Positions 12,684 through 58,866 of a DNA stretch of 64,000 nt are shown piece by piece. The position numbers were made by a program, and so were the translations under genes. Below the pieces are notes generated by a model, which was not told the DNA's origin, searched no databases, and was given only the letters and a program-made list of their open reading frames with translations. Where the stretch lies: contig CM075994.1 of NCBI GenBank assembly GCA_038087875.1, positions 11,782,001 through 11,846,000 on the forward strand. Reading direction: 5' to 3'. Numbering within the stretch: position 1 is the stretch's first letter; the number at the start of each line of letters is the position of its first letter. Source of the stretch: Malacoraja senta (lineage: Eukaryota).

Positions 12684-12792
12684 TGACGCGCAGGCGCACT
12701 GGCGGGGTTCTTCACGTAATCACCTACGTAACTCCTCATAAAATAAAGATCAAACTTCAAACTTAGGTATGTTCTCGTTTAATCTTACTATT
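12684..12792 (+). repeat. DIRS right inverted repeat plus 3' extension
   Basis: Reverse complement of the left ITR, followed by the segment complementary to the ICR. Confidence 0.93.
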
Positions 12793-25233: not shown

Positions 25234-25318
25234 TAGTTGGGATCACGGAGACATAGCTCCAGGGTGACCAAGGCTGGGAGCTGAACATCCAGGGATATTC
25301 AATATTCAGGAGGGATAG

Positions 25319-26481: not shown

Positions 26482-26564
26482 GTGACCAGGACTGCTGTGA
26501 CCATAACTGCTGTGACCAGGAGGTCTGGAAACCTGGAAAAGAGACAGTTAAGTCAAGATAAATC

Positions 26565-29502: not shown

Positions 29503-29713
29503 TGTAAAGACTTGTCAAACACGCAGTGTCTTCACTCTTAGTTTATTGCATACATTGTAGTCGTATACACACATATTGCCCTAGCTGTTCGTGGTCCGTT
29601 ACCGGAGCTAGAGAGCGAGCTAGGCGTGGGAAGGTTACAATTATACTGAAGATAATGGGGAGTGGTTAGTAGTGGTGAGGTCATTATGTTAAAGGAACAT
29701 GCACGGCTCTACA
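29503..29713 (-). repeat. Gypsy B 3' LTR
   Basis: Near-identical to 36038-36248. Confidence 0.95.
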
Positions 29714-30717
29714 TCCTTCCCCTTGAATCCTTGATGACAATGATGACAGTGAGACCACGACTCATACGCTAGACACAAATCCGCGCGTACATCGTCAGGA
29801 AAAAACTTGAAACATTCAAGCAAACTCCCCGTAATGTTCAGGCGGCTTGACCAGATGCCCGGAGCGGGTACGCAGCCCGCCTTCCCCCCCCCCTCCGAAG
29901 GAAGAGCAGGTACAGGAACAGGAGTGGCGATAGGGGATCCGAGAGGAGAATGAGCAGGAGAGGGAGGACGAGGAGACCGGGGAGGAGAAACGGGCGCCGC
30001 AACGGGCACGCGAGCGGGAGAGGTTTGATGGGGGGGGGGCCAGGAGAAGCAGCGGGAGAACGGGGCACCAAGGGCCGCGAGGGCAGAGTCCTGGGCATGG
30101 GAGGAGCGGTGGGCAAAGATGTGGCAACGGGGGGAGCAAACGGGGCCGCGGGAGGCGGAGCGGGCTCGTTGACCGGCAGCAAATGCTGGCGGGACCGGCG
30201 GTAGATGGTGCCCTCGTAGTCAACTAGGTAAGAGCGCGGAGAGTCTGCAAAGCCGATGACAACAGCCAGTCGGTGGTGTCCGGAGGTGGACTGCATCCGG
30301 ACGACCTGGCCCTTGAAAGGGGGCTGAAGGGGACGGCATGATTTGTCGTGGGAGCGCTTCTGGACGACCTGTTTCTGGGCAATGCACTCCAGGACAGTAG
30401 CAGGGCTGCGGACTGCGGGCTGTAGGGATCGCTGGGAGACAGGGATAGGAGGGCGAGTAGTGCGGGACATGAGCCATTGAGCGGGCGAGCCCATGGCATG
30501 GTCGCGACAAATATTTCGGAGATTCAGTAGAGCCAGATAAAAATCCGAATGCGATAGTCTGCAATGTTCCAGCAGCTCCTTGGCACTGCGGACATTCTGC
30601 AAGGCCGTTGCTCTGCGGGTATTCAGGGCTGCTGGTGATGTGGCGAAAGTTGTAGGCGGCGGCGAAGGCGCGGAACTCAGCACTCGTGAACTGGCCCCCG
30701 TTGTCAGACTGCAGAGT

Positions 30718-33082
30718 CACAGGAATGCCAAAGGTCCCAAAGTGGCGTTTCAGGTTCCCGATGACCGCAGCAGAAGTGAGGGAGTGCAGATGCTCAACCT
30801 CGAACCAGCTGGAGTAGGAGTCGACAAGGACCAGGAAATGTTTGCCACGCCACTCAAATATGTCCGTAGCGACCGCCATCCACGCCAGGTCGGGGGCAGG
30901 CTGTTGCAGGAGTGGCTGGCGTTACTGGTGGGGAGAGAGGGTATTGCAGGTTGAGCAGGCAGAGACCCTCTCCCGGATGTCCTGTGCCATGCCGGGCTAA
31001 TAAAATGGGCTCTGGGCCTGGGACAGGGTGGCATCGGCTCCGGGATGGCCGCTGTGGGCAGTTTGGAAATAGTGGTCCTGCAGTGCAGCAGGTACCACAA
31101 CCTTGTGGCCCTTCACCACCACGCCGTCCTGCAGCACAAGTTCATCCCGGACTAGGAAGTAGGGCGCAGCACCAGCCGGCAATGGTGAGCGACGGTCAGG
31201 CCAGCCATGACGGATGACGTCTACAAGCTGTTGCAGGGCAGGATCATTGGCAGTGTGGTGAATCAGGGACTGCATCTGCCGGGAAGGCATAAAGTTGACT
31301 TTTAGCACCACAGGAATGCCAAAGGTCCCAAAGTGGCGTTTCAGGTTCCCGATGACCGCAGCAGAAGTGAGGGAGTGCAGACGCTCAACCTCGAACCAGC
31401 TGGAGTAGGAGTCGACAAGGACCAGGAAATGTTTGCCACGCCACTCAAATATGTCCGTAGCGACCGCCAACCACGCCAGGGCGGGGGCAGGCTGTTGCAG
31501 GAGTGGCTGGCGTTGCTGGTGCGGAGAGAGGGTATTGCAGGTTGAGCAGGCAGAGACCCTCTCCCGGATGTCCTGTGCCATGCCGGGCCAATAAAATGGG
31601 CTCTGGGCCTGGGACAGGGTGGCATCGGCTCCGGGATGGCAGCTGTGGGCAGTTTGGAAATAGTGGTCCCGCAGTGCAGCAGGCACCACAACCTTGTGGC
31701 CCTTCACCACCACGCCGTCCTGCAGCACAAGTTCATCCCGGACTAGGAAGTAGGGCGCAGCACCAGCCGGCAATGGTGAGCAACGGTCAGGCCAGCCACG
31801 ACGGATGACGTCTACAAGCTGTTGCAGCGCAGGATCATTGGCAGTGTGGTGAATCAGGGACTGCATCTGCCGGGAAGGCATAAAGTTGACGTTTAGCACC
31901 ACAGGAATGCCAAAGGTCCCAAAGTGGCGTTTCAGGTTCCCGATGACCGCAGCAGAAGTGAGGGAGTGCAGACGCTCAACCTCGAACCAGCTGGAGTAGG
32001 AGTCGACAAGGACCAGGAAATGTTTGCCACGCCACTCAAATATGTCCGTAGCGACCGCCAACCACGCCAGGGTGGGGGCAGGCTGTTGCAGGAGTGGCTG
32101 GCGTTGCTGGTGGGGAGAGAGGGTATTGCAGGTTGAGCAGGCAGAGACCCTCTCCCGGATGTCCTGTGCCATGCCGGGCCAATAAAATTGGCTCTGGGCC
32201 TGGGACAGGGTGGCATCGGCTCCGGGATGGCCGCTGTGGGCAGTTTGGAAATAGTGGTCCCGCAGTGCAGCAGGCACAACAACCTTGTGGCCCTTCACCA
32301 CCACGCCGTCCTGCAGCACAAGTTCATCCCGGACTAGGAAGTAGGGCGCAGCACCAGCCGGCAAGGGTGAGCGACGGTCAGGCCAGCCACGACGGATGAC
32401 GTCTACAAGCTTTTGCAGGGCAGGATCATTGGCAGTGTGGTGAATCAGGGACTGCATCTGCCGGGAAGGCATAAAGTTGACGTTTAGCACCACAGGAATG
32501 CCAAAGGTCCCAAAGTGGCGTTTCAGGTTCCCGATGACCGCAGCAGAAATGAGGGAGTGCAGACGCTCAACCTTGAACCAGCTGGAGTAGGAGTCGACAA
32601 GGACCAGGAAATGTTTGCCACGCCACTCAAATATGTCCGTAGCGACCGCCAACCACGCCAGGGTGGGGGCAGGCTGTTGCAGGAGTGGCTGGCGTTGCTG
32701 GTGGGGAGAGAGGGTATTGCAGGTTGAGCAGGCAGAGACCCTCTCCCGGATGTCCTGTGCCATGCCGGGCCAATAAAATTGGCTCTGGGCCTGGGACAGG
32801 GTGGCATCGGCTCCGGGATGGCCGCTGTGGGCAGTTTGGAAATAGTGGTCCCGCAGTGCAGCAGGCACAACAACCTTGTGGCCCTTCACCACCACGCCGT
32901 CCTGCAGCACAAGTTCATCCCGGACTAGGAAGTAGGGCGCAGCACCAGCCGGCAAGGGTGAGCGACGGTCAGGCCAGCCACGACGGATGACGTCTACAAG
33001 CTGTTGCAGGGCAGGGTCATTGGCAGTGTGGTGAATCAGGGACTGCATCTGCCGGGAAGGCATAAAGTTGACGTTTAGCACC
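30718..33082 (-). repeat. Four tandem 591-bp (197-codon) in-frame copies of the RNaseH-integrase linker, zinc-binding domain and N-half of the integrase core
   Basis: Equivalent ORFs start at 30912, 31503, 32094 and 32685; VLNVNFMPSRQ...HFGTFGIPV is repeated in the 1105-aa ORF. Confidence 0.96.
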
Positions 33083-35528
33083 ATCAGGTCGGATGACTCG
33101 TACGGTTGGCGGGCAGTAGAAGCCAGCGGTGCGCGGGACAGCGTGTCGGCCACAAACATGTCCTTGCCCTTTCGGTACACGATTTGAAACGTGAAGCGTT
33201 GGAGCTGCAGCATCATACGCTGCAAACGGGAAGAGGGCACGTTGATCGGTTTGTTCAAGATCGTGACCAGCGGCTGGTGGTCGGTTTCAATAGTGAAAGT
33301 GTTACCCAGAATGTAGTCCTTGAACTTCGAGCAAGCAAACACCACGGCAAGGAGCTCCTTCTCGATCTGAGCGTAGCGTTGCTCGGTAGGAGTCATAGTG
33401 CGGGAGGCGTAGGAGACAGGTAGTTGCAGGCGGTCGTAGATTTTCAGGCAGGCAGCACCGAGACCGAAACTTGAGGCATCGCAGGTAAGGACGATGGGGC
33501 GCTTTAAGTCGAAGAACTTCAGAGTGGGGGTGCGAACCAGCCGGGATTTTAAGTCATCGAAGTCTGCCTGATGCAGCGGGTACCAAACCCAGGCAGTGTC
33601 CTTCTTGGTCAGTTCCCTCAGGGGCGCGCTCAGCTCGCTGAGGTCGGGAATGAATTTCCCCTGGTAGTTCACCATGCCCAAGAAGCGCTGCAGGCTGGGC
33701 ACGTTGACCGGAGCTGGCATCCCAGAGACCGCAGCTGTCTTCTGTGGGTCTGGATTTAGACCCTCAGCCGTAAAAATGTGCCCCACGTAGGTGACCTCCG
33801 GGACGCGGAAGCGGCACTTCTTCGGGTTCAGTTTGAGGTTGATCTCACGGGCCCGATCCAGGACTTGGCGGAGGTGGAGGTCGTGCTCAGCGACGTCTCT
33901 CCCGTACACCAAGATGTCATCGACGATGAAAGCACACGGCAGATGGGCAAACAGCTGCTCCATGGTGCGCTGGAAGACCTCGCTGGCAGAATTGATCCTG
34001 AAAGGCATGCGGAGGAAACGGAACCTGCCGAAAGGTGTACCGAACGTGGTCAGGAAGGATGAACGTTCATCCAGCGGAATCTGCCAGAAAGAGCTCTTGG
34101 CATCGAGGACAGAGAATACAGTGGCTGGGCCAACCTTTGCAGCGACATCCTCCACCGTTCGCATGGGGTAGTGCGGGCGTTTGATGGCAAGGTTTAGGTC
34201 CTTGGGGTTTATGCAGATCCGGATCTCACTCTTATCCTTCTTGGAAGCAACGACCATGGTGGAGACCCACCGGGTGGGATCACTCACCTCCTTGATGATG
34301 CCTACGGCCACCATCTGGCGCAGTCGACTCCACCCTGTCCTTCATAGCAAAGGAGACGCGGTGAGCCGGGCAGACTACCGAATGGACCTCCGGGTCCACC
34401 TCGATTTCGTACTTGCAGGGTAGTTTGCCCAATACATCGTCAAAACGGTTGGGGTATTCGCACATGGGATCCATGGGGGTCTGCACCAGGTGGATATCGC
34501 GGTGGAAGGAAACCAAACCGAGGTCCTGGCACGCATTGGCGCCCAACAGAGTAACATTCTCAGATTCCAGCAGGAGGAAAGAGAGGGGCCGAGAGGCATT
34601 CAGAACTGTGCAGATAAGGGTTGCCTTGCCGACCGGAAATAGCATGCTCCCCCCATATGCGTGGAGGCGGGAGTCGTCAGCAGTAATGTTCTCACCAGAT
34701 CTTATCTGCTCAAAGAGGCTTAACGACATAACATTTGCAAACGCCCCAGTGTCGACCTTGGCAGAAAAGGTCTTTCCATTCACAGTAACTCGAACTGATG
34801 GATCAGCTATCAAAGCATGTGCACCCAAGACTGAAAAAACACACGATTCATCATGGGTGGAGCTGTTATCAGAATCAGGGAGTTCGTCTGAAAGGTATTC
34901 AGAGCCATAAACACTATCAGTAGCAGTCAGGTTGTGTAGACTCCTTCTCGGAGCAGGGACAGGCTGGCCCCTGGAACGGCACACTGCAGAGAAGTGATTA
35001 AGCTTCTTACAGAAATTACAAGTCTTACCCAGCGCAGGGCAAACATTAAATTGCTGACTGACAAAGTTGCAGTTTGGGCATCGACGAGGGTTAGTCCTCG
35101 CGGGCGCGGGAGTGCTAAGCTAGCGTGGCGGGCCATCGCGCCGCGGGCGTTCAGCAGTACCGGCATAGTGAATGTCCTGAGCCTCAGGGGGAGATACGGA
35201 GTCGACAGCAGCAGCCATGCGAGAGGCATGCAAAGCGTCGTTTAAAGTGAGGTCCGGCTTTCTCAGAAGCTCTGCCCGTAGCTTCACGTCCTGTAGACCG
35301 TGAACTAGGACATCTCATACCATTTGGTCGGAGGGTCAACGTGTCCAGGCGGCAACGCCAAGCCAGGTGACGCAACGATGCAACGAAGGTGTCGATGTGC
35401 TCCCCGGGTTTCTGGCGCCTGCTGAAAAACTTGAACCGTTCTATAATGCAATTGGTCGGAATGTCACACAGCGCGGCAAATTTATTCGTGAGACATATCG
35501 GGTCCTCTGCATGCTCACCATCGGCGTA

Positions 35529-35752
35529 CAGAGAGCGGTGAATCTCTGGAACTCTCTGCCACAGAGGGTAGTTGAGGCCAGTTCATTGGCTATATTTAAG
35601 AGGGAGTTAGATGTGGCCCTTGTGGCTAAGGGGATCAGGGGGTATGGAGAGAAGGCAGGTACGGGATACTGAGTTGGATGATCAGCCATGATCATATTGA
35701 AGGGCTCGAAGGGCCGAATGGCCTACTCCTGCACCTATTTTCTATGCATCTA
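35529..35752 (+). mobile_element. CR1 3'-end fragment inserted in Gypsy B gag
   Basis: QRAVNLWNSLPQ..FKRELD and tail cctattttctatgcatcta; removing it restores gag FESFE-YADGE. Confidence 0.9.
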
Positions 35753-36037
35753 CTCGAAAGATTCAAAACGTTCCATGGCTTCCGGGCCAGCCAGGTTAAG
35801 GAGCAGATGTGCTGTAACCGCAGGGGTAGCATTAGGATGAGCGATGGCGACATAGTGCTGGAAGTCGCGCCGGAAGACAGTCCACCGGTGAACGATGTCG
35901 GAGTCAAACACCAGAACGTCAGGCTTACGACACAAGCTGGCCATAGTACATAAAGGGTTTGAACGGAAAATAAAAACTTGGAGAAAACAAAACAAACCCG
36001 ATAGACAGGAGACGCAGGGTTTAACTTTGTGACACCA

Positions 36038-36248
36038 TGTAAAGACTTGTCAAACACGTAGTGTCTTCACTCTTAGTTTATTGCATACATTGTAGTCGTA
36101 TACACACATATTGCCATAGCTGTTCGTGGTCCGTTACCGGAGCTAGAGAGCGAGCTAGGGGTGGGAAGGTTACAATTATACTGAAGATAATGGGGAGTGG
36201 TTAGTAGTGGTGAGGTCATTATGTTAAAGGAATATGCACGGCTCTACA
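36038..36248 (-). repeat. Gypsy B 5' LTR
   Basis: Near-identical to 29503-29713; followed on the minus strand by the PBS. Confidence 0.95.
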
Positions 36249-38261
36249 AAAAGGAGGTGGGGTAGCGTTGCTGGTTAGAGAGGAGATTAACGCAGTGGAA
36301 AGGAAGGACATTAGCTTGGAGGATGTGGAATCGGTATGGGTAGAGCTGCGAAACACTAAGGGGCAGAAAACGCTGGTGGGTGTTGTGTCCAGGCCACCTA
36401 GCAGTAGTAGTGAAGTTGGGGATGGCATCAAACAGGAAATTAGAAATGCGTGCAACAAAGGCAAAACAGTTATAATGGGTGACTTCAATCTACATATTGG
36501 GTGAATCAAATTGGCAGGGGTGCTGAGGAAGAGGATTTCTTGGTATGTATGCGGGATAGTTATCTAAGCCAACATGTAGAGGAACCAACGAGAGAGCAGG
36601 CTATACTAGACTGGGTATTGAGTAATGAGGAAGGGTTAGTTGGCAGTCTTGTTGTGCGTGCCCCCTTGGGCAAGAGTGACCATAATATGGTTGAGTTCTT
36701 CATTAGGATGGAGAGTGACATTGTTAATTCAGAAACAACGGTTCTGAACTTAAAGAAAGGTAACTTTGAGGGTATGAGACGTGAATTGGCCAAGATTGAC
36801 TGGCAATTCGTTCTAAAAGGGTTGACGGTGCATATGCAATGGAAGACATTTAAAGACTGCATGGATGAACTACAAAAATTGTTCATCCCAGTTTGGCAAA
36901 AGAATAAATCAGGGAAGGTAGTGCATCCGTGGATAACAAGGGAAATCAGGGATAGTATCAAAGCAAAAGATGATGCGTACAAATTAGCCAGAAAAAGCAG
37001 CATACCAGAGGACTGGGAGAAATTCAGAGACCAACAGAGGAGGACAAAGGGCTTAATTAGGAAAGGGAAAATAGATTATGAAAGGAAACTGGCAGGGAAC
37101 ATAAAAACTGACTGCAAACGTTTTTATAGATATGTGAAGAGAAAGAGATTAGTTAAAACAAATGTAGGTCCCTTGCAGTCAGAAACAGGTGAATTGATCA
37201 TGGGGAACAAGGATATGGCGGACCAATTGAATAACTACTTTGGTTCCGTCTTCACTAAGGAAGACATAAATAATCTGCCGGAAATAGCAGGGGGCCGCGG
37301 GTCAAAGGAGATGGAGGAACTGAGTGAAATCCAGGTTAGTCGGGAAGTGGTGTTGGGTAAATTGAATGGATTAAAGGCCGATAAATCACCAGGGCCAGAT
37401 AGGCTGCATCCCAGAGTACTTAAGGAAGTAGCTCCAGAAATAGTGGATGCATTAGTGATAATTTTTCAAAACTCCTTAGATTCTGCAGTAGTTCCTGAGG
37501 ATTGGAGGGTAGCAAACGTAACCCCACTTTTTAAAAAGGGAGGGAGAGAGAAAATGGGGAATTACAGACCAATTAGTCTAACATCGGTAGTGGGGAAACT
37601 GCTAGAGTCAGTTATTAAAGATGGGATAGCAGCACATTTGGAATGTGGTGAAATCATTGGACAAAGTCAGCATGGATTTACGAAAGGTAAATCGTGTCTG
37701 ACGAATCTTATAGAATTATTCGAGGATGTAACTAGTAGAGTGGATAGGGGGGAACCAGTGGATGTGTTGTATCTGGACTTTCAGAAGGCTTTCGACAAGG
37801 TACCACATAAGAGATTAGGATACAAACTTAAATCACATGGTATTGGGGGTTCAGTATTGATGTGGATAGAGAACTGGCTGGCAAACAGGAAGCAAAGAGT
37901 AGGAGTAAACGGGTCCTTTACACAATGGCAGGCAGTGACTAGTGGGGTACCGCAAGGCTCAGTGCTGGGACCCCAGCTATTTACAATTTATATTAATGAT
38001 CTGGACGAGGGAATTGAAAGCAACATCTCCAAGTTTGCGGATGACACTAAGCTGGGGGGCAGTGTTAGCTGTGAGGAGGATGCTAGGAGACTGCAAGGTG
38101 ACTTGGATAGGCTGGGTGAGTGGGCAAATGTTTGGCAGATGCAGTATAATGTGGATAAATGTGAGGTTATCCACTTTTGTGGCAAAAACAGGAAAGTAGA
38201 CAGTGATACTTTAAAGTGATAGAAGGACAGTGATACTTTAAAGGAAAGCAAAACAAAAACC

Positions 38262-40932
38262 ATGATCCTACCAAACCAAATGCATGATGATGATAACAAG
38301 GCACTTGGTCTGGGCTACATTGTTGAAGAGGACATGCTCCACGTTATGGTGGGAATCAATTTCTCCAAGAGAAAGAAAAAGATGCGGCTTGGTCAAGGCC
38401 TTCTACAAGAGCAAATCAAAACTCAGACGCCAAATCCCCTAACAAGAAGAGAGCTTCTCAGCCAGGTAGCAGGGCTATATGACCCCATCGGCATAGTGGC
38501 TCCTGTTAAGCAAAAGGGAGCGATGTTAGTACGCAGAGCTTTCCAAGAAGCAAAAGAGGGAAGCTGTTCGGTCAGAGACACATGGGACATGGCACTCTCA
38601 GATGGACTCAGGGAGGATGCAATTAAGCTCTTTGAAGAGTACATACAACTTGGAAAAGTCAAGTTCGTCAGGGCACTGACTCCCTCTTGCTCCGCAACTG
38701 AACCCTTGGGGATCACCTTTTCTGACGGGAGTGAGCACACCTACGGGGCAGTGATGTACCTGAGATGGGATTCAGACCATGGCCCAATTGTCAGACTTGT
38801 GGAATCCAAGGCCAAGTTAACTCCCTTGGACCACAGAGGAGACGCTGTTAAAGCAGAGATGTGCGGAGCAGTGTTCGCCTCACGCTTAAAGAAGTATTTC
38901 GAGCTACACAGTCGAATTCAAGTGGAGAAGTGGTATCATCTTGTGGATAGCCAAACAATCCTTGGTGCAATACAGCGAGAAAGCTACGGATTTCAGACAT
39001 TCTTCGCCAATCGGATTGGAGAGATTCAAACAAGCACCAACATTCAGGACTGGCGGTGGATTCCTGGCCCACAAAACATTGCTGATGTAATCACCAGAGG
39101 TGCCAGCCCTCAAGATCTTGATCAGTATTCGGAGTGGCAAAATGGACCGAAGTTCCTGGTATTGCCTGTGAGTGAGTGGCCAATAAAATCAGCTAAAGAT
39201 CTGGCTGCCACTGCCAGAGAGAACATCAACAAGTTACAGGAGAAAGCTTTTGTTGCAGCACTATCAAGAGCCAAAGTAGAGAAACAAGAACCGGAACCAA
39301 CAAACCCAAAGAGACCACCTGAAGGGTCAGCTATTCAAAACCTTGTTGATGTCAAGCGGTTCAGCATTCTAACTCGACTGATCAAGACAGTCGCATGGAT
39401 TTGGAGAGCAGCGAAGAGGTTTCTTGGCAAGGAAAAAGCCTTAAACGATCCAAAGTGGGAGGCCATCTCTTTGACAGGAGTCATTACAGTAAGAGAACGA
39501 GAAAATGCTCTAAAAGACATTTTTTGTGCTGCGCAATTGGGCACAACTTTCCCAAGCACCACAACAGATCGACTGGTAGCCTATAAAGACCAAGATTCTG
39601 GGCTGATGGTTTGTGGTGGCAGAGTGCAGAGCTTTGAAGAGAATAAAGTTGCTGTTCCCATCCTGCCCGTTGATGCCTGGGTGTCCATGCTGCTAGCTCG
39701 GGAGGCTCACAGGGAGAGTCATGACGGAGTGGCTGGGACCTTGCTTAAAATGAGAGGAAAGGCTTGGGTCATAAAAGGAAGGAGAATTGCTCAAAAAGTC
39801 GTTGATCACTGCATAATCTGCAAGAAAGCAAAGGCAAAGAAATGTCAACAAGTAATGAGTGATCTGCCGCCTGAAAGAACTGAACCTGCTGCTCCTTTTG
39901 AGTTTACAACAGTAGACCTCTTTGGACCCTACCACGTACACGATGACGTCAAGAAGAGGGTAAAACTCAAAGTCTGGGGAGTTGTCTTCTGCTGTATGGC
40001 CAGCAGAGCCATCCACACAGAGTTAGTCAACACCTTATCAAGTGAAGGGTTTCTGATGGCTTATCAAAGATTCACAGCAATCCGTGGGCACCCCAAGAAG
40101 ATCTGGTCAGATCCAGGCACCAATTTTATTGGCGCAAAACCAGTCTTAGAGGAACTATATAGATTTTTGGACAACCTGGACAGAGCAGCTTTGGTGGAGA
40201 ACGCAGCTAAAAATGGAACAGAGTGGATGTGGAAAATCCATCCTGCTGATTCTCCACACAGAAATGGCGCTGCGGAAGCTGCTGTGCGTGTTGTGAAGAG
40301 AGCGCTCCAAAGGTTTGGAAAAGAATCGTCACTCAGTTATAGTGAGTTTCAGACAGCTCTTTACATGGCAGCCAACCTGTCAAATGAACGTCCGATCGAC
40401 GCCAGGATACAAAGCCGGGAAGACTGCGTTCAGTACATCACACCAAATACTCTTCTGCTTGGCCGAGCATCTCAGCATGGAGACATCAAGACTTTTGACT
40501 TTTCCAGCTACCCCTACAAAAGACTTAGAACAATGCAGTCAGAGGTGAACAAGTTTTGGAAGAGCTGGAGCCAACTCGCCAGTCCTAACTTGTTTATAAG
40601 GAGCAAGTGGCACACCACTCAGAGAAATGTCACTGCCGGAGACATTGTCTGGTTAAGTGACCAAAATGCACTGAGGGGGGCAATTCAAGCTGGGCAGAGT
40701 CATCAGCTCCAATCCAGACCGCAAAGGCATCGTGAGAGACATTAATGTACGGATCTTTCCAAGTTACTCCATTCCTCTGACAAAGGCTTTGAAAGGAAGG
40801 GCAAGGCATTCCACTCAGGGGAAGGAGAGGATCCAAGCCACGATTGTTCAGAGGGATGTTAGGCGGCTGGTTGTCTTGCTTCCAGTAGAAGAACAAGACA
40901 GCAATGCATCAGGAGACCAAGTTCAAACCTAG
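38262..40932 (+). pseudogene. BEL pol C-terminal part (Pao peptidase/RNase H, integrase, DUF5641-like end)
   Basis: TRRELLSQVAGLYDPIG, FSDGS, VDSQ, NIADVITRG, H..H..C..C, VDLFGP, SDPGTNF, NGAAE; frameshift near 40680. Confidence 0.92.
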
Positions 40933-40986
40933 ACTTCAAAGTTTGACTTTAAAGCGTCGATCTCCCAAGTGGTTCCAAGAGGGAGG

Positions 40987-42158
40987 TGTCAAGTCAAACT
41001 GTAATGAAAGGTATTACCTGCCTCCAAGTTAAAGGGGGAGGAGTATTATGTATGTAATATAATTGATGTTACCGGGCTCCAAGTTAAAGGGGGAGGAGTG
41101 TTAGGTATGGGATAATTAGGATAAGTAATTGGTGTCTTGTGATGTCTGGGGCAAGTACGCAGGAGCAAAAAAGACAAGGTGGCGTTCTGCAGTAAAGAAG
41201 CTTGCATGATTCCTCCCGTGTCCGAGCCTTTATTCAAGACTGTTCAAAGCATCCGAATACACAACAATTGGCGACGAGGATAAAAGAACGAAGATAAGAA
41301 CAAGGCCAGCAAGAAGAATCGAAAACAAACGTTAAAAATGGTAGTATTTGGAAACAAGTGGAACAGCACCAAGCCAAATGGTTTTGAATTGGCGCCAAAA
41401 AGAAAAAAGGTAGGAACGGGAAGCAATAGCTCAGGGAAGAGCTAGGAAATCAAGTAGGGGCAGTAAGGGTCACCAAGCACGGTGTCAGCTTACCTGGAAT
41501 GTATCCAGGGCTGTGCAGCCCACAGCCAAGCTCAAGCAGCAGCCACAGACGTCGGGTGGGGGCGTAGTACCGTTGAGGCCATGGACAGGTCCAGAAACGC
41601 CACCGACAAGAGGCTGAGTCTTCAGCCCAACTGGGAACAGTCAACCCGGTGGGGGGAGAAAGCAGAGAAAGCCCGGTCGGGAGCAGAGTCAGCCCGACCG
41701 TGAACAGAGAAGCGGAGATAAGCCAAGTTCCGCCCGGGGCTTTAAAAAAGGGCACACAGCACCGGAAGCGAGGAAAAGACGGAAGTTGACGCGGCTAAAA
41801 ACTTGAACAGTATAATCTAAGAGACTGTCCTAAAAACTGCCGCGTTCGCCAGCGAAGGCATGCAGGACTAATTATCTACAGCACCCGATTGGCAGCCAGT
41901 TTTTCACCTGCTAAAAGACTAAACTGTTAAATACCTTCAGACCTACAACATCCAAATGCCCTCAAAGTAATGGCTGAAGCAATAAATCAAGTGAAACTGT
42001 CAATTAATTGCTGAATCAGCCAAAATAAAAGGAGAAAAAACAAGAATAAAAAAGAAGTGGTTTGGTCATTGAGTGAAATCCAGTTCATCATTTCGGGGTG
42101 GATGAATCAGATCCCTTTCAAGCAGGGAATCTGCACAAAAACATTAGAAGACTTGACA
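40987..42158 (+). repeat. BEL 3' LTR
   Basis: Direct repeat of 25319-26481. Confidence 0.94.
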
Positions 42159-48134: not shown

Positions 48135-48276
48135 GAGACACGAGGAAATGCAGATGCTGGAATCTTCAGCAAAACACAAAGTGCTGGAGTAACTCAGCGG
48201 GTCAGGCAGCACCTGTGGAGTGAGTGAATTGACAACATCGTGGGTCTGAAGCCTGGAAAAGGGTCCCGACGTGAAA
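48135..48276. mobile_element. Short Penelope terminal-repeat-related fragment
   Basis: acacaaagtgctggagtaactcagcgggtcaggcagcacct resembles the reverse complement of the Penelope 3' end at 44220-44263. Confidence 0.6.
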
Positions 48277-48299: not shown

Positions 48300-51200
48300 A
48301 ACATTCTCTACATGCCTGCACGAGAACAGGGCCTACATTGCAAATTAGCCGTGGTGGAACATGAAGGGGGAAGTCCGAGTCTGTGAAATGGTCTGCAAAA
48401 TCATTCCCCCCCCCCCCTCCTTTGCAAAAGCCTTAAAGTTCCATGATCAGCTTGGAAAGCAGGACATATTGATCCGAGATCAGAGTTGCGGATTAGAAGA
48501 TGTTAGAGGCGATGGATGGTGTATTCGCGGTGGTCTCGCATTATGGTGCTGGTAGATACGGCAACAGGAGAGACCCTACCTGTAAAGGAGGGTGGGGGTT
48601 TAAGTCCAGGGGCAGTCGCAAGTTAAGTTCCTGGGCATACTGCTCAGTCCAAATGAAAGAGCCTTGACATCCACGTGGATTGACCCCATCATTGCCCAAG
48701 CGACCCCCTGCACTCCTAAACAAATGCGAGCATTTCTGAGCCTTGTGAACTTTTATCGCCATTGGATTCCCAACGTCGCACTTTACACCAAACAACTCTG
48801 CCCCTTTCACCCTTTCTGCAGAACAGGTTGCCGCATTCTATGCACTTAAACAGGCCCTTGCCACTGCACCGGCGGTGGGACGACATCTGTACGGCCGACC
48901 TTTCCAGCTCTACATTACTATCTTGGACGATTGTGCGTCCGCAGTCCTCACGCAATACCACGGCGATGTTCAGCGTCCTGTCTCTTACTACTCAGTGAAA
49001 TTGGACCCTGTGGCTCTAGGATTTCTTTCCTCGCCCAGATTCTCCCCGGACTTCACTCTCCATCAGCTCGTCCAGGTTTACACCCAGCATTTCATTGCGG
49101 CATTCCTCACCACCGGACAAACAAGAAGCCTCACGCAGGCCAGACTGGGGACGCTATGAGGACACCTCTTGGCTAATCCCTACCTTTCCCTCCACAATTG
49201 CACCACAATCAACCCGTTCGCCTTCCTCACCTCCACCGGATCATCAGGTGGGGCCACCGCATGATTACCTTCGGCGTAATCAACTGTTGACCACCACACG
49301 CGAGGACTTGTTAGAAGCCCCCCTCCCGGAGGCTGATGCCACATGGTTCGTGGAGGACTCATCTCTTTTCTCGGTCACCGGACAACGACAATCCGGATAT
49401 GCCATCATTCAAGATATGATCTCGGTCATTGAGGGTGCCGCTTTCCAGTCACCCCTTTCTGCACAACAGGCAGCGCTCTTCGCCCTAACCCGAGCATGCA
49501 TCCGCGGTAAGGCCTGCCATTTGAATATCTAAACCGATTCCCAATACACTTTTAGCGTTGACTACAATTTTGGGACGCTGTGGTAGCATCGCAGTTTCCT
49601 CACCTCCTCCGGCACCCCCATTAAGAATGCTGTTTTCACCCACAATTTGTTGCAGGCCCTCGCCCTTCCCGCCAGGCAATAATTAAATGCAGCGCCCATA
49701 CATGAGTCTCGGGCAGATGGGGCTTGTCAGCCTGGGAAGGCAGTACATCTAGGAGAGGGAAAACTCTGATTTAAAACCTCCACTGCCTTGTGGCCATATC
49801 CAGTCATGGAAAGGGCTCCAGGAGTAAACCTCAAGAAAAACCGGAATCGGAGCCCCTAAGGCAGTTCGTCGTTGTGTACAACCTTGCTCTGGCAGCTCCT
49901 GCGTCGGCTCTGGTGCCAAACTGTAATGGCCCTGCTGTTCCCTTGGATCGATCAGCGACGTGGTGAGGGGGGACGTGCTGCATGGGCAACAGCCTGTCCT
50001 CCATATGACATCGCCGAGGCTTGCATCCGACTAGGATGCATCACTCATGGTCAGTCATGACCGAGTACTACTACTGGTGCCTCCGATCCAGTCTCCTAGG
50101 GCAATGCCTTTACCGACACCAAAGCAAAGCCAGCCGCACATAATTCCCTTACAATCATACACCCCCCTTATGATCCCCATAGGCCCACAGTTCATTGTGA
50201 ATAGAACAGCCTTGACAGATATGGGAGAGGTTAGGGCTATGCAGAGGGACGCCTCTGCTGCGCAACATGATTTATGGAAACGAGAGGGATGTGCCATAGA
50301 TTCCCGCACCGATCTTTGGCTCACCCCTCTTGGATAAGTTTGTGTACCTGTCGCCTTCCTGCCTGTCCTCCTTAATTACATCCATTCGCTGACGCACGCT
50401 GGAAAGGAGGGAATGGTGAGAATTGCGAAAGAAACCTGGTGGCATCCGAAGATCTGCCAGGAAGTGTTGAAACAGGCTTCTGAATGTGGAATTCGTAAAC
50501 AAAACAACCCAGGGAAAGAGTTAAAATGACAAAGGGAATGACGCCAATGCCCGGCAGACCCTTCGAGAGTAAACAAATAGATTTTATAGAGCTACCACGG
50601 GCACAGTGTTGTAAGTATTGATTGGTAATTGTGGATTTATTTAGCCGATAGATAGAAGCTCTGCCAACTGTAAATGTTACAGCCGAAGCCACGGTGAGAA
50701 TCATTCTAAGGGAAATTATTCCCCAGTTCGGATTGCCACAACAATCAGCTCTGACAATGGTCACAATTAATGAAGCAAAAATAAATGAAGAGTTCTGCCA
50801 ACATTTTCGCTCCACACCCGGGTGGTGTTAGAGAGGGCCATAGTTGTACAGCAGTTATTTAGTATATTTGTAACATAGTTGTTTGTAAATTTAGTGTCCG
50901 AATAATTTGTTGATTTTGTAATATGGTGGTGGGTGTGTCACCATGGTTTTTCTTTGTATCGTGATAATAATTAAATAAATTATTTTTGGTACAAAAACAA
51001 AAAAATATATATATATTCGCATTAAATAACAATTGCATTGTGTCCACCATCCACAAGCTGCCGGCCTAGTTGAAAGGGTCAATGGAACCCTGACGACAAA
51101 ACTAGCAAAGCTGATGGAGGAGACTGGACTGAATTGGATAAATGTATTCCCATTGGCTCTTTGAGATGAGGGTGACTCTGCGTACTGCCACCGGCTGACA

Positions 51201-51420
51201 CCTGTGGAAGTTGTGTACGGACGGCCGTTGCGAACTCCTTGGGGAGCAGAACGTACTCTAGAGCTTAGCTTCGACCTGCATGCCCTCAGTGATGAACTAA
51301 TAACTTATGTGCAGCAATTAACAAACTCACTATCAGTCTTGCATTCCCAGGGTCGTGAAACACAAAGGGTGACGACTGACAACCCTGAAGAACGAACTGT
51401 GTGGCCGGGTGACTGCGACC
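48300..51420 (+). mobile_element. Degraded class I (epsilon/gamma-like) endogenous retrovirus: RT end, tether, RNase H, integrase
   Basis: VKFLG; PKQMRAFLSLVNFYRHWIP; RPVSYYSVKLDPVALG; DLLEAPLPEADATWFVEDSS; SAQQAALFALTRAC; FLTSSGTPIKN; QIDFIELP; LREIIPQFGLP; HPQAAGLVERVNGTL. The left boundary is approximate. Confidence 0.85.
49701..50075 (+). mobile_element. Short non-coding RTE-related retroposon inserted in ERV RNase H
   Basis: Contains ggcag..tctaggagagggaaaactctgatttaaaacc (RTE 5' UTR-like) and a (tac)n tail; interrupts IKCSAHT|GASDPVS. Confidence 0.6.
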
Positions 51421-52545
51421 CTCAGCCGAATTTGAGATCGGAAGAAGTTATACTGCCTGTGCACAATATAATTGAGTGGGACCGCGAGGAACTGGCAAGT
51501 TTGTGACCATACTTATAGTGGCTCTCCCACTCCCGCTAGTGTAATAAAGTTGTGTCTTTACTATGAGCATCAGTGTCTGACGCCGTTTATTATTCCAGAG
51601 CGCTGGCAAACTGCCTTAGCTGGGTGTGCTAATGATTTCACGCGCAGCATGCCGTGGAAGGAGTCGATGGCATGGTGTTGTGCCAGGCCGACTCCTACTT
51701 CATCAATCCAGTGCTGCCAGGACACTGGCATTCAAGTAAGAAATATCAGAATTGTATGTCTCCTTTGGCCTGCATCAGAATTTTGAGAGACTTGGAAGTT
51801 GCAAAATTGCGCTGGAACATAGCGACTCTCTGTGTGCTGTTCCAGATGAGGATCTATTGTACTCATATATGGAATGACTTGAGGGATAGCATGCGGAACA
51901 AGTATTTCACTGTCACTGTACAAGTGACAAAAAATAACCCTCTGAACCAACCACTGAACTCACTAAAAAAACATAAAACCATTAAGGACAAAGCAACCGT
52001 GCACACAAGGAGCTGCACAAGCTGGACTCTTGAGTATACAGTTTTTGTCAATCGCTTTGACACTAGTTTCAGAACCTTGATGTCATTTTTCACAACTCTA
52101 GATACAAAACTCACAACCAATGATCAAAATGCACTTTTTTCAAAACTCTAACACTTTTTCCAATTTCTTGGATACAATTCACATAAACCAAAGATCATTT
52201 GTCCATTGAACTATAATCACCTGTTCAAAATGACACAACTTAACATCAAAGTATAACCATTTCAAAATGCAATTCACACATTACATTTGAGATGACTGTC
52301 TATTCATTTCATTACAATAATCTAACTATCAATTGATACAACTGCTCAAAATGACAAGTAACTGTTGCATTACTCTTAAAGCATAGTCTTATGGAAACTG
52401 AGGATGAGCATGTTCAGATCATGAAAGTTTCAGGATGACGACAATGATTGACACCACCTGTGACACCAATTTGTTACTGATGATTGATCTGACCTTGTGG
52501 TATGGGTGTAAGTGGCATCCACAACAACATCTGTAGTGATACAAC

Positions 52546-54133
52546 ATGGAGCAGGCAGGTGGGCACCATAGAGGTCAAGTAGGAGAAGGAAGAGGAGGAA
52601 GACGTAGTCAAAGGAATGGCAGGGGACAAACACCCCTTTTGAGAGGTGGCCATGGGCCCCGTTTGAGAGGTGGCCATGGGCCCCGTTTGAGAGGTGGCCA
52701 TGGGCCCCGTTTGAGAGGTGGCCATGGGCCCTGTTTGAGAGGTGTGGGGGAACGGGGTCGAGGACAAGGACCAAGACAGCAACGGCAAAGAGTCTCCAAT
52801 GAGATTAGAGCAATGGTTGTAGATCATGTCATCAATCATGGCATGACAATGATTGAGGCAGCGAGAATGATACAACCAAACCTTAGAAGATCAACCGTGG
52901 CCTCAATCATTAGAACTTTCCGGAATGAGAACCGGTAAGTCTTCAGCATGCACTACAGTAAACATTACAGTACTGTAGGCTACTCTTACTGTAATTGTCA
53001 AATGATTGTACACTGCATGCCAATGTGCAGCACAGAGTAGGTAATGTGACTATGAAAATGTGTTCTACAGTATGATGACATGTTCTTCCTGTCATATTCC
53101 CTACAGAATTGAGACTAGACCCAATAGTGGCGGCAGAGGCAGACTCCTCACTGAGGAACAGGAACGGGCTGTGGTCAACATGGTCCGGGCCAGAAATGAC
53201 ATTCGGCTTAGAGAAATCAGACAGAACATCCTGGACGATGAAGATCTCTTCAGGAATGTGGAAGCCATAAGTTTGCCGACCATTGCACGTGTTCTGAAAA
53301 GGCACCAGATGTCCCTCAAACAGTTGTACCGTGTGCCTTTTGAAAGAAATGCAGACAGAGTGAAGCAACTGAGGATTGAGTATGTTCAGGTATGTTCAGT
53401 TTCATGATGCGTTTGTGAAAAATTCCCCATCATTGTACTGTAATCAATACTGTACAGTAATTCTCTTTCCAACATGTCTTTTTGTACATAGAGGGCGATG
53501 GCCCTGGATGCGGATGACAATCAGCACAAATTTGTTTTTGTGGATGATGCAGGCTTCAACCTGGCCAAGACAAGGAGAGGGCGAAATTTAATTGGCCAGC
53601 GGGCAACCATACAAGTACCTGCACGACGTGGGGCCAACATCAGTACGTGTGCGGCGATATCAGAAGATGGTGTGGTAGGGCGTAGATCTCTGATTGGCGC
53701 ATACAATGCAGAGCTCCTTGTTGCATTTCTTGATGAGCTAACTCTAGTCTGTAGAGCTGTTGGTGTAATTTATGTAATTGTGTGGGACAACGTCAGGTTC
53801 CACCACGCTCATCTGGTGCAGGCATGGTTTCAGGCCCATCCACAGTTCCTCACTGTGTACGTGCCCCCATACCCTCCTTTCCTTAACCCCATTGAGGAAT
53901 TTTTCTCCACATGGAGGTGGAAAGTGTATGATCAGCATCCGCATCAACAAGTGACCCTTCTCCAGGCCATGGACAATGCCTGCGATGACATTACAGCAGA
54001 CCAGTGTCAGGCCTGGATTCGCCATGCGCGAAGGTACTTTCCAAGATGTTTGGCAAACGAAAACATCTATGCGGATGTGGATGAGAACCTGTGGCCCAAT
54101 CCACAAGACAGGGTTGATGGGGATGACGAGTGA
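52546..54133 (+). CDS. Three-exon DD35E transposase, 437 aa (exons 52546-52934, 53107-53389, 53492-54133)
   Basis: GT-AG introns (CG|gtaagt..ctacag|A; CAG|gtatgt..acatag|AGG) join the three ORFs in frame without stops; HTH region; FVDDAGF, VWDNVRFH, FLNPIEEFF with 35 residues between D and E. Confidence 0.88.
52639..52745 (+). repeat. 24-bp coding minisatellite (LRGGHGPR x4+)
   Basis: ttgagaggtggccatgggccccgt repeated. Confidence 0.92.
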
Positions 54134-54184
54134 TTGTTGATCCTTTGTTTAGCTTTTTTTTCATACTAAACTTTCTTTTCTAGT

Positions 54185-56310
54185 AAACCAGAAAAGAAAG
54201 TGATAAGGACATGGACAAATGAACATCAGGAACAACTGAAAGCCTGTTTTGAATTGACAGACTGGGAAACCTTTCAGGAGGGTTCACTAGATGAAATAAC
54301 TATAGTTACAAACGATTATATTGATTTTTGTGTACAGTTGGTTGTCCCCACTAAGGAGATTAAAATCTATCCCAACAATAAATCATATGTAACTACGGAC
54401 ATAAAAAAAAGTTATAAATACAAGGAAAGTGGCTTTAAAAAACAAAGATTCTGGGGCACTTAAACAGACAGAAAAATTACTGAAAATAAGATTGAGGGAA
54501 GTAAAATTGGCGCACAGACAGTATCTAGAAGATGCTTTCAGATCCAATAATTATAAAAAGGTGTGGGATACAATGAAATCTATGACAGGAATGTCAACCC
54601 CATCTAAATCTATTGTGACAGATAACAAACTTTCTCTTTCCAACGAACTCAACACTTTTTTTGCCAGATTTGAATCTCTAGTTAATTCTACTAAGTGTAC
54701 CGACATCCTTAAATCTGTTATACCTGCTGACTCTGACAGAATTGTCATCACTGTAGAGGATGTCAGGAAAACATTTCAGTGTACAAATACAAAGAAAGCT
54801 GCTGGGCCGGATGGATGCAGCGCTTTTCTCTTGAGGAACTTTGCAACACAGCTGGCTGCAGTGAGGCACCAAATCTTTTAGGCTTCTGTGGACACACACA
54901 CTGTCCCTCTGTCATAGAAAACGTCGCATATAAAACCTTTGCCCAAGATTCCATGTCTTAAAGAACATAAGGATTTCAGACCCATAGCCCTTACCTCGGT
55001 GATTATGAAATCTCTAGAAAGAATTTTGCTCCGACATTTCATCAGTACAACAAACAATAAACTCGATCCATATCAATTTGCCTATAAGCAGGGCTGTGGC
55101 ACGGAAGACGCTGTTGCCTCCTTAGTTCATATTATTTCTAAACATTTAGACAAACCCAACACCTATGCGAGAGCCCTCTTTCTAGATTTTCCATCAGCTT
55201 TCAACACAATACAAGCAGACATTTTGGTGTCAAAAATGGTCCAGCAAGAACTGAATCCCTATCTGATTCATTGGGATGCTTCCTTTCTTACTAACAGAGT
55301 ACAGATTGTAAAGGTGAATAAAACCCTTTCATCTGCCATCACAACCAATGTCGGGGGCCCCCAGGGTTGTGTGAGTTCAACTATGCTTTTTACCATTTAC
55401 GCTGATGATTGTCGTACAGATACACTGAATCAATATATTCTAAAGTACTCAGATGATACAGTTCCATTTTCTCTGTTAAGTAACTCAGACAACCCTGGAC
55501 TGCACCAACTCGGCGTGAACAAACTGGTCAAGTGGACTGATAATAATGCTCTTGAGATTAACACAAAGAAAACGGAATAGATTTTATTTGGCTCACCATC
55601 TGACTCATAAAGTTTCTCGTTATCCATTATGAAAAAATCAAGCAGGTATTTTCATTTAAATATTTGGGGGTAACGATAGACCATCAGTTATCATGGAATG
55701 ACCACATTGATAAGATTTGCAATAAGACAAAACAAAGAATCTGGTTTCTCCGCCGACTTAGATCTTTCAGAGCAAGTAGACAAATCCTTTTATTATTTTT
55801 TACCGCTGTGATAATGAGTGTTTTACAGTACTGTAACACTACATGGTACAAGAGTTGTCTGCTACTTCAAAATCAAAGCTGCTCCAACAGTTAAAAATCT
55901 GCTCGAAGATTGTAGGTCAACCACTTCAGAAATTGTATGAATCATCCTACCATTAAAACATGCTAAGGATGGCCAACAACATTTCTTCTGACCCCAACCA
56001 TGTTCTGAACAGTGAGTACAATTTGTTACCATCAAACCGGAGATAAAGGGTTCTAAAATATAATAAGGTTAGACTGAAGCACTCTTTTGTGCACCAGTCA
56101 ATCCTCGAACTAAATACGGTGCTTAATCCCAGATCAAATGTACGCTGATGGGCCTTAAATGTTGTCTTCTGTTATTGCAATGTGATGTTAAATGTATGTA
56201 TTTTTGGGTCCTGTCTTGATGTCTTACAGGTTGTCTTGGAGCTGATGCGATGCAAAACAAATTTCAGACTTGCTCTGACAATAATGTAACATTGTATCGT
56301 AACGTACCGT
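54185..56310 (+). mobile_element. 5'-truncated Rex1/Babar LINE
   Basis: LKACFELTDW, YPNNK, KAAGPDG, DFRPIALTS..MKSLER, LDPYQFAY, YSDD, QRIWFLRRL; tail caaatttc..gacaataatg with microsatellite-like end. Confidence 0.88.
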
Positions 56311-56311
56311 A

Positions 56312-56510
56312 TGCCATGATGGCATATTCACAAATGTACTATTGGTGGCCAGGGTTGATATCAGAGGTGAAAAAATACCTTATACAATGTTAAACACTGT
56401 TTATTGACAAATTCAAATCCAGTTACCAGGGCACTGCCCCTGGTCAAAATTAAACCTAATCGTCCTTTTGATTTAATTTATTTGGACTTTATAGGTCCCT
56501 TGCCAAACCA
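56312..56510 (+). pseudogene. Retroviral integrase fragment, foamy-virus (spumaretrovirus)-like
   Basis: With one +1 frameshift it reads YYWWPGLISEVKKYLIQC/KHCLLTNSNPVTRALPLVKIKPNRPFDLIYLDFIGPLPN (zinc-binding end and first catalytic Asp). Confidence 0.7.
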
Positions 56511-57056
56511 GCATCTGCAGTTTCTCTTACACATTTTGTCCACTCCACTGCGAAATCTCCTCAAGGTATGTCTACTTTGAAGAAGTTTTCCTCCTCTGTC
56601 TGATGAGAGTTCAGCAACATCCTCTCTCACTGCTCCCCTTCTGTGATTCCTCCTTCCCTCCGACTCTACGACCACATTTAACCCAGACCCGTTAACACAG
56701 CCACGTTTATTCTGTCCTCTGCTTGAATTCATGTGCAATAGCGCCATCTGTTGGACCTTTATTGTGAAATGGCCATTGCACACAGGAAGTAGGAAGAAGG
56801 AAGCAGGAAGTAGTCTCCTGTCTTTTGTTTGCCTGCCATGCATTAACATCTGAAGCAATCCTTTCCAATCCTGGCTTGTTACGCTTCAGAAAGCAATGGC
56901 TGCAAGTTCATTGTGTTTACTTTATGCTTAGAATCCTATATTGAAGAGTATTTATGACGGATGATGTTTAACTCCATAGCATTTGTGAATGTTCACTTTT
57001 CCGGAATACATAAAACACCAAGGCAAGAAGGCAACTGACTGGCTGTGCTGCTTCCA

Positions 57057-57551
57057 AGGTTCACCAGACTGATTCCTGGGATGTCAGGACTTTCATATGA
57101 AGAAAGACTGGATAGACTTGGCTTATACTCGCTAGAATTTAGGAGATTGAGAGGGGTCTTATAGAAACGTACAAAATTCTTATGGGGTTGGACGGGCTAG
57201 ATGCAGGAAGATTGTTCCCGATGTTGGGGAAGTCAAGGACAAGGGGTCACAGCTTAAGGATAAGGGGGAAATCCTTTAAGACCGAGATGAGAAAAAACTT
57301 TTTCACACAGAGAGTGGTGAATCTCTGGAACTCTCTGCCACAGAGGGTAGTTGAGGCCAGTTCATTGGCTATATTTAAGAGGGAGTTAGATGTGGCCCTT
57401 GTGGCTAAAGGGATCAGGGGGTATGGAGAGAAGGCAGGTACGGTATACTGAGTTGGATGATCAGCCATGATCATATTGAATGGCGGTGCAGGCTCGAAGG
57501 GCCGAATGGTCTACTCCTGCACCTATTTTCTATGTATCTATGTATCTATGT
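57057..57551 (+). mobile_element. CR1 3' fragment (same young family as the others)
   Basis: RFTRLIPGM...QRVVNLWNSLPQ; (tatgtatc)n tail. Confidence 0.92.
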
Positions 57552-58866
57552 GTTTCCGCTGCCACATCCAAAGATATGGCGCCGTGCCAAGGTGATCGCT
57601 CTGCCGAAGCCAAACAAGCCTAGCGATGACCCCAAGGGATACCGACCCATCTCACTGCTGTGTGTTCCATACAAGCTCCTGGAACGTCTCCTCCACACAC
57701 GTCTCAATCCAGAGATCCATCCCCAGCCGCCTAAAGAACAGGCTGGCTTCTGAAGCGGTAGGTCAATGACAGACCATGTGACCCTCCTGTGCCAAGACAG
57801 ATGACAGCTTCCAGGCAGGGGAGAAGGCAGGCGCTGTCTTCTTGGACCTGCATATGATACTGTCTGGCTGCGTCGACTACACATGAAGCTTCTGGAAACC
57901 ATCCCAGCCAATCACATGGTGAGCTTCATCATGGAGATGCTGAGCAACCGCAGCTTCAGGCTATACACCAGCAACGGGCAATGCAGCAGGGTGAGGAAAC
58001 TTAAGAACGGCGTCCCACAGGGCTCAGTGCTGGCACCAATGCTTTTCAATATCTATATCCATGACCTGCCTGCAACCCAATCAAAGAAGTATGGCTATGC
58101 TGATGATCTGGCCATCCTACTCAGTAAGCCATCCTGGGAAGCAGCAGAAGAGGGCCTCTCTGAAGACATGAACATCCTGCCTTCATACCTGAGGAACTGG
58201 CGACTTAAGCTCAGCATGGGTAAGACAACATCTTCAATGTTCCACCTCAACAACAGGGAAGCGACCCGCGAGATGAACGTCACGGTGGATAACGCCCGGT
58301 TACGGTCCCAGCCTGTCCCCACGTAACTCGGTGTGAAGCTCGACAGAACGTTGTCATTCAAACACCTGGAAGGTGCGAAGGCAAAGACAAGCGCCCGTGC
58401 CGCACTGATACGCCGTCTAGCCGGCACCACATGGGGAGCCACGACGAAGACACTGCGCATGGCCACAATGGCCCTGGTGTTCTCAGCCGCCGAGTACTGC
58501 GCCCCGGTCTGGTGCCGTAGCCCTCACGTCAAGAAGCTGGATGCTGCCATCAACAGCACCCTGCGGACTGTCTCCGGATGCCTAAGAGCCGCCCCACTAA
58601 ACCAACTGCCCGTCCTCGATTGCATCGCCCCAACCAACATCAGATGAGAAGCAGCCACGCTGGCCCTCTCTCGAAAGGCACAGACCAATGAATCCCACCT
58701 CCTCCATCAGATTGTCACAGAGACACCACGACGAGTGTGCCTCAAGTCACGGCACCCCTTTAACACCGGCTGACGCTTCTAAGGCTGCCTGGGTCAAGAC
58801 GAGATGGAGAGACCAGTGGAAGTCAGCGGAACCATCTAGGCTACACCAGTACATCAATGACCCCAT
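57552..58866 (+). mobile_element. Second Vingi-like LINE fragment, from a different family than 2143-3420
   Basis: YRPISLLCVPYKLLER, NGVPQGSVLAP, YADD, KLDRTLSF, WGATTKTLR..AEYCAPVW. Confidence 0.82.

Follow-up and report, generated by a model that had tools for sequence, protein, structure and literature searches.

Organization of the locus

The window, meaning the whole 64,000-nucleotide stretch of DNA that was analysed, is a dense stack of transposable elements, in which a piece of a retroviral integrase gene is preserved at 56311-56505 (+). The remnant is 195 bases long, comprises part of the integrase zinc finger and the start of the catalytic core, and is bounded on each side by another repeat. 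On the left lies a 5'-truncated, decayed LINE (54180-56310, +, with the 5' edge approximate), recognized by an RVT_1 match at 54918-55577 (E 3.6e-26) and by multi-copy depth that extends to about 56310. The 3' tail of the LINE abuts the remnant, and a related copy continues at that point as integrase with no LINE tail; the left boundary of the remnant, at about 56311, is the position at which this copy departs from the window sequence. Through the LINE, the integrase gene lost its upstream part at this position, either by removal or by displacement, and no target-site duplication was found for the LINE.

On the right the remnant is cut by a very high-copy repeat (56505-56700, - strand), the start of whose contigs defines the boundary at about 56505, and from that position onward summed contig depth is 3-4 orders of magnitude higher in all four runs. 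The repeat shares a 19-nt end, reversed, with a repeat at 48142-48160, and may be the end of a Penelope-like element. The first-pass annotation placed the remnant on the + strand like the other elements. This describes 22 of the 26 frames of at least 200 aa, but a Gypsy element with a frame at 30997-34341 lies on the - strand, and the repeat adjoining the remnant has the opposite orientation to the copy at 48150.

No other part of the element of the remnant, be it RT, RNase H, gag, env or LTR, was detected in the 64-kb window, and it is by these parts that the foamy group is defined. A comparison of all foamy ORFs of at least 150 aa, from 17 loci, with the window revealed nothing further of that element, and foamy profiles covering the adjacent 250 residues on the upstream side and 200 on the downstream side matched only the integrases of other elements in the window. 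Rfam families were likewise absent from 54000-58000. At 51636-51866, a blastx match to RNase H of foamy viruses (E 0.45) was dismissed as noise, and the class I ERV at 48.6-51.5 kb, which has an integrase of its own, is not the parent. The latter element is a decayed class I (epsilon/gamma-like) ERV pol (48610-51500, +) comprising the end of RT, the connection, RNase H and integrase; its best matches are frog and primate class I proteins, and its integrase is broken by a short AT-rich insertion near 50830-51020.

Reading frames and preservation of the integrase remnant

Translation divides the remnant into two halves that are separated by a single frameshift near 56391. The first half (56311-56390, +, frame 1) is the end of an H2C2 zinc-binding domain as far as the first Cys; its reading from 56313 to 56390 has YWWP-x12-C at the end and is followed by a stop at the frameshift. 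It matches Pfam Integrase_H2C2 with an E value of 1e-4 and 22.8 bits, which is below the cut-off of 25.5. A frame-3 His-x-Gly reading at 56315 was dropped in favour of frame 1, which gives the Pfam match and the correct spacing. The second half (56392-56505, +, frame 2, read as 56392-56508) contains the second Cys, the TN pair, the linker and the start of the catalytic core, PFD-x4-DFIGPLP; it is recognized by its match to the PFV integrase and by the foamy profile, and of the catalytic residues it includes just the position of the first Asp. The motif string had at first been given as one translation. Its elements, YWWP, the Cys pair, TN and PFD-x4-DFIGPLP, are all present with the spacing of PFV (ungapped over PFV residues 82-137, with 31 residues from Cys to GPLP), but they are divided between two frames, and the frameshift had gone unmentioned.

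The frameshift is real rather than an assembly error, because a contig of organism G (run X21) is identical to the window across 56329-56499. Functional integrases have an open frame, the HHCC residues and the D-D-E triad; here the frame is shifted, and both His residues, the second Asp and the Glu lie beyond the preserved stretch. The remnant encodes no working protein and is a dead viral fossil. Its shortness, its broken frame and its Pfam score below the cut-off could be taken to indicate a chance resemblance or an assembly artefact, but none of 1000 codon shuffles reached the best HSP of the real sequence (47.4 bits, with a shuffle maximum of 26.9), and besides the identical contig in organism G there are diverged contigs in organisms A and H. 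Chance and artefact are thereby refuted, and their probability is negligible.

Similarity to foamy virus integrases

When the read-through, with an X at the break, was searched against PDB, the PFV integrase was found with an E value of 2e-11 and 46.7 bits, remnant residues 4-59 aligning without gaps to residues 82-137 of PFV integrase (56 residues). Eight of the 11 PDB matches at E up to 10 were PFV integrase entries and none was any other integrase, and the second half by itself matched the PFV integrase with an E value of 1.6e-4. PDB contains few retrotransposon integrases, and a harder, motif-matched control set was therefore built. In PDB the motif-matched Gypsy controls scored 29.5 and 25.7 bits against PFV, one of them favouring Ty3, and the window's own Gypsy segment gave no integrase match in the same test.

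The degenerate pattern WWP-x12-CxxC...GP[LF]P identified 20 viral loci, 17 of which are foamy viruses (Pol frames of 1138-1230 aa), and at least 119 loci in metagenomes. For the control set, five pattern loci were removed as chance matches and the window's two Gypsy integrases were added; the set as scored was without Gin-1/Gin-2, CGIN1, Odin, ray-finned-fish FLERV, chimaera and catshark integrases. Among the matches listed, the second half gave scores of 69-111 with the 17 foamy segments and of 16-65 with 119 others, and the 13 highest summed scores were all foamy, whereas the first half did not discriminate (47-68 for foamy versus 30-79 for others, again among the matches listed). A search with PFV integrase yielded 93 proteins, 87 of them parsed, in which the second half scored 71-111 in 14 foamy proteins and at most 67 in the 73 others. 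Summed scores in these 87 proteins were 123-158 for the 14 foamy members and 113 for the best of the others; P0036, a fish protein that contains a SCAN domain and is named 'Gypsy retrotransposon integrase-like protein 1', reached a summed score of 93.

Profile comparison gave the same separation. A foamy profile was built from 18 foamy segments and tested on 191 non-foamy segments, many of which had been preselected for the same motif. The second half of the remnant scored 48.1 bits, against a non-foamy maximum of 25.3, and true foamy viruses that were left out of the profile scored 52.9-74.2 bits. With the first half, 62 of the 191 non-foamy segments reached the score of the remnant. The foamy-minus-pool score was +17.6 for the remnant and at most -14.6 for the non-foamy rows, those rows being in the training set of the pool.

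By PDB matches, pairwise scores, profile and controls, then, the remnant lies nearer to the integrases of foamy viruses than to those of Gypsy or of class I elements, the last of which score low, and both the top scores and the profile difference favour foamy over Gypsy. The first-pass annotation had expected the best matches to be foamy rather than Gypsy or Gin-type, and as regards Gypsy this was borne out by PDB, by the profile and by the motif-matched Gypsy controls. Large protein searches revealed no close relative of the remnant: word-indexed protein searches with the read-through returned no relatives, and a HMMER scan for which the 40-residue second half served as query yielded two proteins, both of them unrelated tandem-repeat proteins. 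In viral contigs, a peptide pattern picked out 59 candidates, none of which was confirmed.

Diagnostic residues and alternative sources of the integrase

The distance from the second Cys to GPLP is 31 residues in the remnant, as it is in all 17 foamy viruses. The motif PF[DQ]-x4-D[YF]I, present in the remnant, occurs in 17 of 17 foamy viruses and in none of the 112 others parsed among the matches listed; TN after the second Cys, also present in the remnant, occurs in 12 of the 17 and again in none of those 112. Ungapped identity to the remnant over 53 columns is 20-27 for foamy segments and 9-19 for 16 other segments of equal spacing. The remnant thus resembles PFV and the other Spumaretrovirinae (PDB 3OYK/3L2Q; P0004-P0016) in the spacing from Trp-Trp-Pro to Cys-x2-Cys and from Cys to GPLP, in TN and in PFD-x4-D[YF]IGPLP, and differs from them in condition and host: PFV-type viruses are intact, exogenous and mammalian, whereas the remnant is a frameshifted, endogenous scrap of 65 codons on a long branch.

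The integrase might instead come from an LTR retrotransposon or integrase-only transposon that has not been sampled (Gypsy, Gmr1, Gin/Ginger or Odin-like), its resemblance to foamy integrases being fortuitous. Ty3/Gypsy (Metaviridae) integrases share WWP-x12-CxxC and GP[LF]P with the remnant, as the at least 119 metagenome loci attest, and in its first half they are indistinguishable from it, fitting as well as, or better than, the foamy segments. They differ in having mostly a 32-residue spacing (84 of 112 among the matches listed), neither PF[DQ]-x4-D[YF]I nor TN, and far lower second-half scores. Such an origin is quite unlikely in view of the second half, whose profile score was approached by none of the 191 non-foamy segments, of the confinement of both diagnostic motifs to foamy viruses among the matches listed, and of the failure of Ty3 integrase to appear in PDB at E up to 10.

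A second alternative is that the integrase is not of the mammalian/coelacanth foamy type and belongs to another deep retroviral lineage, be it the lokiretroviruses, class III or the FLERV type of ray-finned fishes. Lokiretrovirus (CGIN1-type) integrases in PMC7947760 have GPLP and the same 31-residue spacing as the remnant, and the catshark and chimaera elements are reported in PMC10699275 to group with ray-finned-fish elements. Compared by eye, however, one lokiretrovirus consensus in the supplement of PMC7947760 has PW in place of PF, lacks TN and is identical to the remnant in 15 of 53 columns, as against 27 of 53 for the coelacanth virus CoeEFV, so that the remnant does not fall with the lokiretroviruses; the main text of that paper lists no cartilaginous host for them. 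In the trimmed alignment in the supplement of PMC3386198, the ERV-L rows have neither YWWP nor the PFD motif, and class I integrases, with their low scores, form a clade of their own. Membership in one of these other lineages is accordingly improbable.

CoeEFV (PMC3386198) is, by eye, as similar to the remnant as is the best mammalian virus. It differs in being known from full proviruses, in one gap in its row, in having LF where the remnant has PF, and in its host class. PMC7947760 distinguishes integrase group II, of tetrapod and coelacanth foamy viruses, with CoeEFV in this group, from group III, of fish. The identity of the remnant to group II integrases is high, in a comparison that included members of group II and no group III sequence.

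Phylogenetic placement

In a tree of 65 rows and 73 columns, the remnant lies among all 13 foamy rows (support 89/93), in a clade into which a long class I row was also drawn. In a 31-row tree it joins all nine foamy rows at 86/84, which is below the starred level of support, on a branch of 0.92 changes per column. The remnant amounts to only about 63 columns, and an AU test in which the remnant was held with all Gypsy rows did not reject that arrangement (p 0.263). The expected placement with foamy viruses rather than Gypsy was therefore recovered as a grouping in both trees, but the Gypsy side stands unrejected. Likewise, the foamy-like assignment that the first-pass annotation had made tentatively is supported by the profile, the diagnostic residues, the best matches and the tree placement, with the AU test indecisive.

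The transposon origin considered above also draws on L038, an LTR retrotransposon whose integrase lies closer to the foamy clade than any other non-foamy integrase and matches PFV with an E value of 8e-6. In L038 (3-5084), RNase H and integrase are separated within Pol by a long insert that presumably carries cytosine-methyltransferase-like motifs. Moreover, retroviral integrases have been swapped several times according to PMC7947760, so that the affiliation of an element as a whole cannot always be read from its integrase.

Copies in related organisms

Comparison was by contigs from four of the 24 runs listed, in organisms G (X21), A (X1) and H (X23), contig depth not being equivalent to copy number. 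In organism A a single contig of 329 bases covers 56237-56554 with 17 other letters and two gaps, a divergence of about 5%. This contig consists of 74 bases of LINE tail, the remnant and about 49 bases of the repeat, so that both junctions are bridged, and the composite is therefore older than the split of G and A. Organism H has two contigs over 56329-56516, the right end of which is too short to count as bridging. The copies of A and H have small indels of their own within 56391-56441, and the listed differences comprise silent and replacement changes in ratios of 2/5 and 2/9. These indels and the excess of replacements are as expected of neutral decay. At 0.5e-9 per site per year, the catshark rate assumed in PMC10699275, a divergence of 5.3% corresponds to about 50 Myr, a figure from one uncorrected locus with a borrowed rate.

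Organism G (X21, X22) also has contigs of much deeper coverage that match 56311-56361 and the stretch from 56465 to 56504, and not the 103 bases between them, which these copies either lack or have in diverged form; no such excess of depth over the remnant was seen in organisms A and H. The loose end of the related G copy, before 56311, when translated by eye, has an H-x-G motif 14 residues ahead of YWWP, which is the foamy spacing. Because this upstream end continues as integrase, there are further copies without the LINE in organism G. A 16-nt motif from the same upstream end does not occur in the window at up to three mismatches.

Origin of the remnant and relationship to known foamy-like elements

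Taken together, the sequence comparisons indicate that the remnant is probably (at a probability of roughly 0.85) a non-functional pol (integrase) piece of an endogenous foamy-type retrovirus that is Spumaretrovirinae-like, with an integrase of the mammalian/coelacanth type. A foamy-like virus would have integrated into an ancestral germ line. A LINE would then have inserted into the zinc-finger part and the high-copy repeat just past the first core motif, insertions of which the junctions are directly visible, and the remaining provirus may have been lost or moved out of the window. The composite was passed down to at least two of the three remnant-bearing organisms, G and A, as the junction-spanning contig shows, and would have drifted neutrally since, with a frameshift and with replacement changes exceeding silent ones. 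The remnant may also be a source of silencing small RNA in this transposon-dense, strand-biased region.

CFEFV, endogenous foamy viruses of cartilaginous fishes, have reportedly been found in sharks and rays. As the first-pass annotation stated, foamy-like ERVs are known from some fishes and a chimaera: PMC5512871 describes them in amphibians as well as fishes, and also in a chimaera, Callorhinchus milii (CmiFLERV, pol only), with grouping of RT (and Pol) with foamy viruses as the criterion, and dates the lineage to about 455 Myr. PMC10699275 reports 293 catshark elements that group with foamy viruses (ERV-Spuma.0-Sca); Amblyraja radiata and Leucoraja erinacea are among the 12 chondrichthyans screened there and are absent from its list of species with elements. 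Cartilaginous-fish endogenous foamy viruses are, by its title, the subject of Wang, Chen and Cui 2023 (PMC9972966), and endogenous foamy viruses are described as rare fossils in PMC8922424. CmiFLERV, ERV-Spuma.0-Sca and CFEFV resemble the remnant in being foamy-like and, presumably, in host class, a likeness of description. An 8-nt Trp-Trp-Pro codon motif had no match inside the catshark consensus, for which line breaks or other codons may be responsible.

The remnant is an additional locus of an already reported kind of viral fossil in cartilaginous fishes, and it adds nothing on host range beyond existing reports. No report of a skate or ray foamy ERV was found in the literature searched, which, given Wang, Chen and Cui 2023, is no proof of novelty. 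The remnant had also been proposed as informative on the age of retroviruses. This claim fails: a scrap of 65 codons whose minimum age is, roughly, some tens of Myr cannot shift the estimate of more than 450 Myr in PMC5512871, and the remnant alone says nothing on that age. Shared insertions do yield hard minimum ages, and the locus is a useful bait for longer natural proviruses, because its junctions are common to two organisms about 5% apart and further related copies exist. It also helps to ask which integrase type the foamy viruses of cartilaginous fishes carry. It is conceivable, if rather doubtful, that the remnant marks an undescribed elasmobranch foamy lineage, characterized by a tetrapod/coelacanth-type integrase, an orthologous shared insertion and a lineage-specific multi-copy derivative. 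If so, cartilaginous fishes would have the tetrapod/coelacanth type of integrase, whether as an ancestral trait or via cross-class transfer, and the elasmobranch host group would possess a directly datable foamy-virus insertion.

Other elements in the window

Several further elements occur in the window. A DIRS-like element (+) is represented by RT, Dam-like and tyrosine-recombinase frames at 710-1783, 3361-4200 and 10275-12199, which are split by nested LINEs, and has inverted ends at 576-627 and 12684-12735. A tandem array with a 37-base unit lies at 21350-21715. The BEL/Pao element at 25318-41730 (+), whose terminal repeats are 97-98% alike and 15.7 kb apart, contains nested CR1 and minus-strand Gypsy insertions. 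Repeats of CR1/HER1 type, a family listed for sharks and rays in PMC3747384, suggest that the host is a cartilaginous fish. A Gypsy integrase has, at 30718-32790 (-), a 591-base unit that recurs four times in frame (97-98% alike); the resulting 1114-aa frame, in which zinc-finger pieces recur, reflects either a true duplication or an assembly error. Finally, a Tc1/IS630-type transposase (HTH_32, DDE_3) extends over three frames at 52540-54133 (+), with a short tandem repeat in the first frame and with GT...AG-like borders, possibly of introns, near 52935-53107 and 53390-53490.
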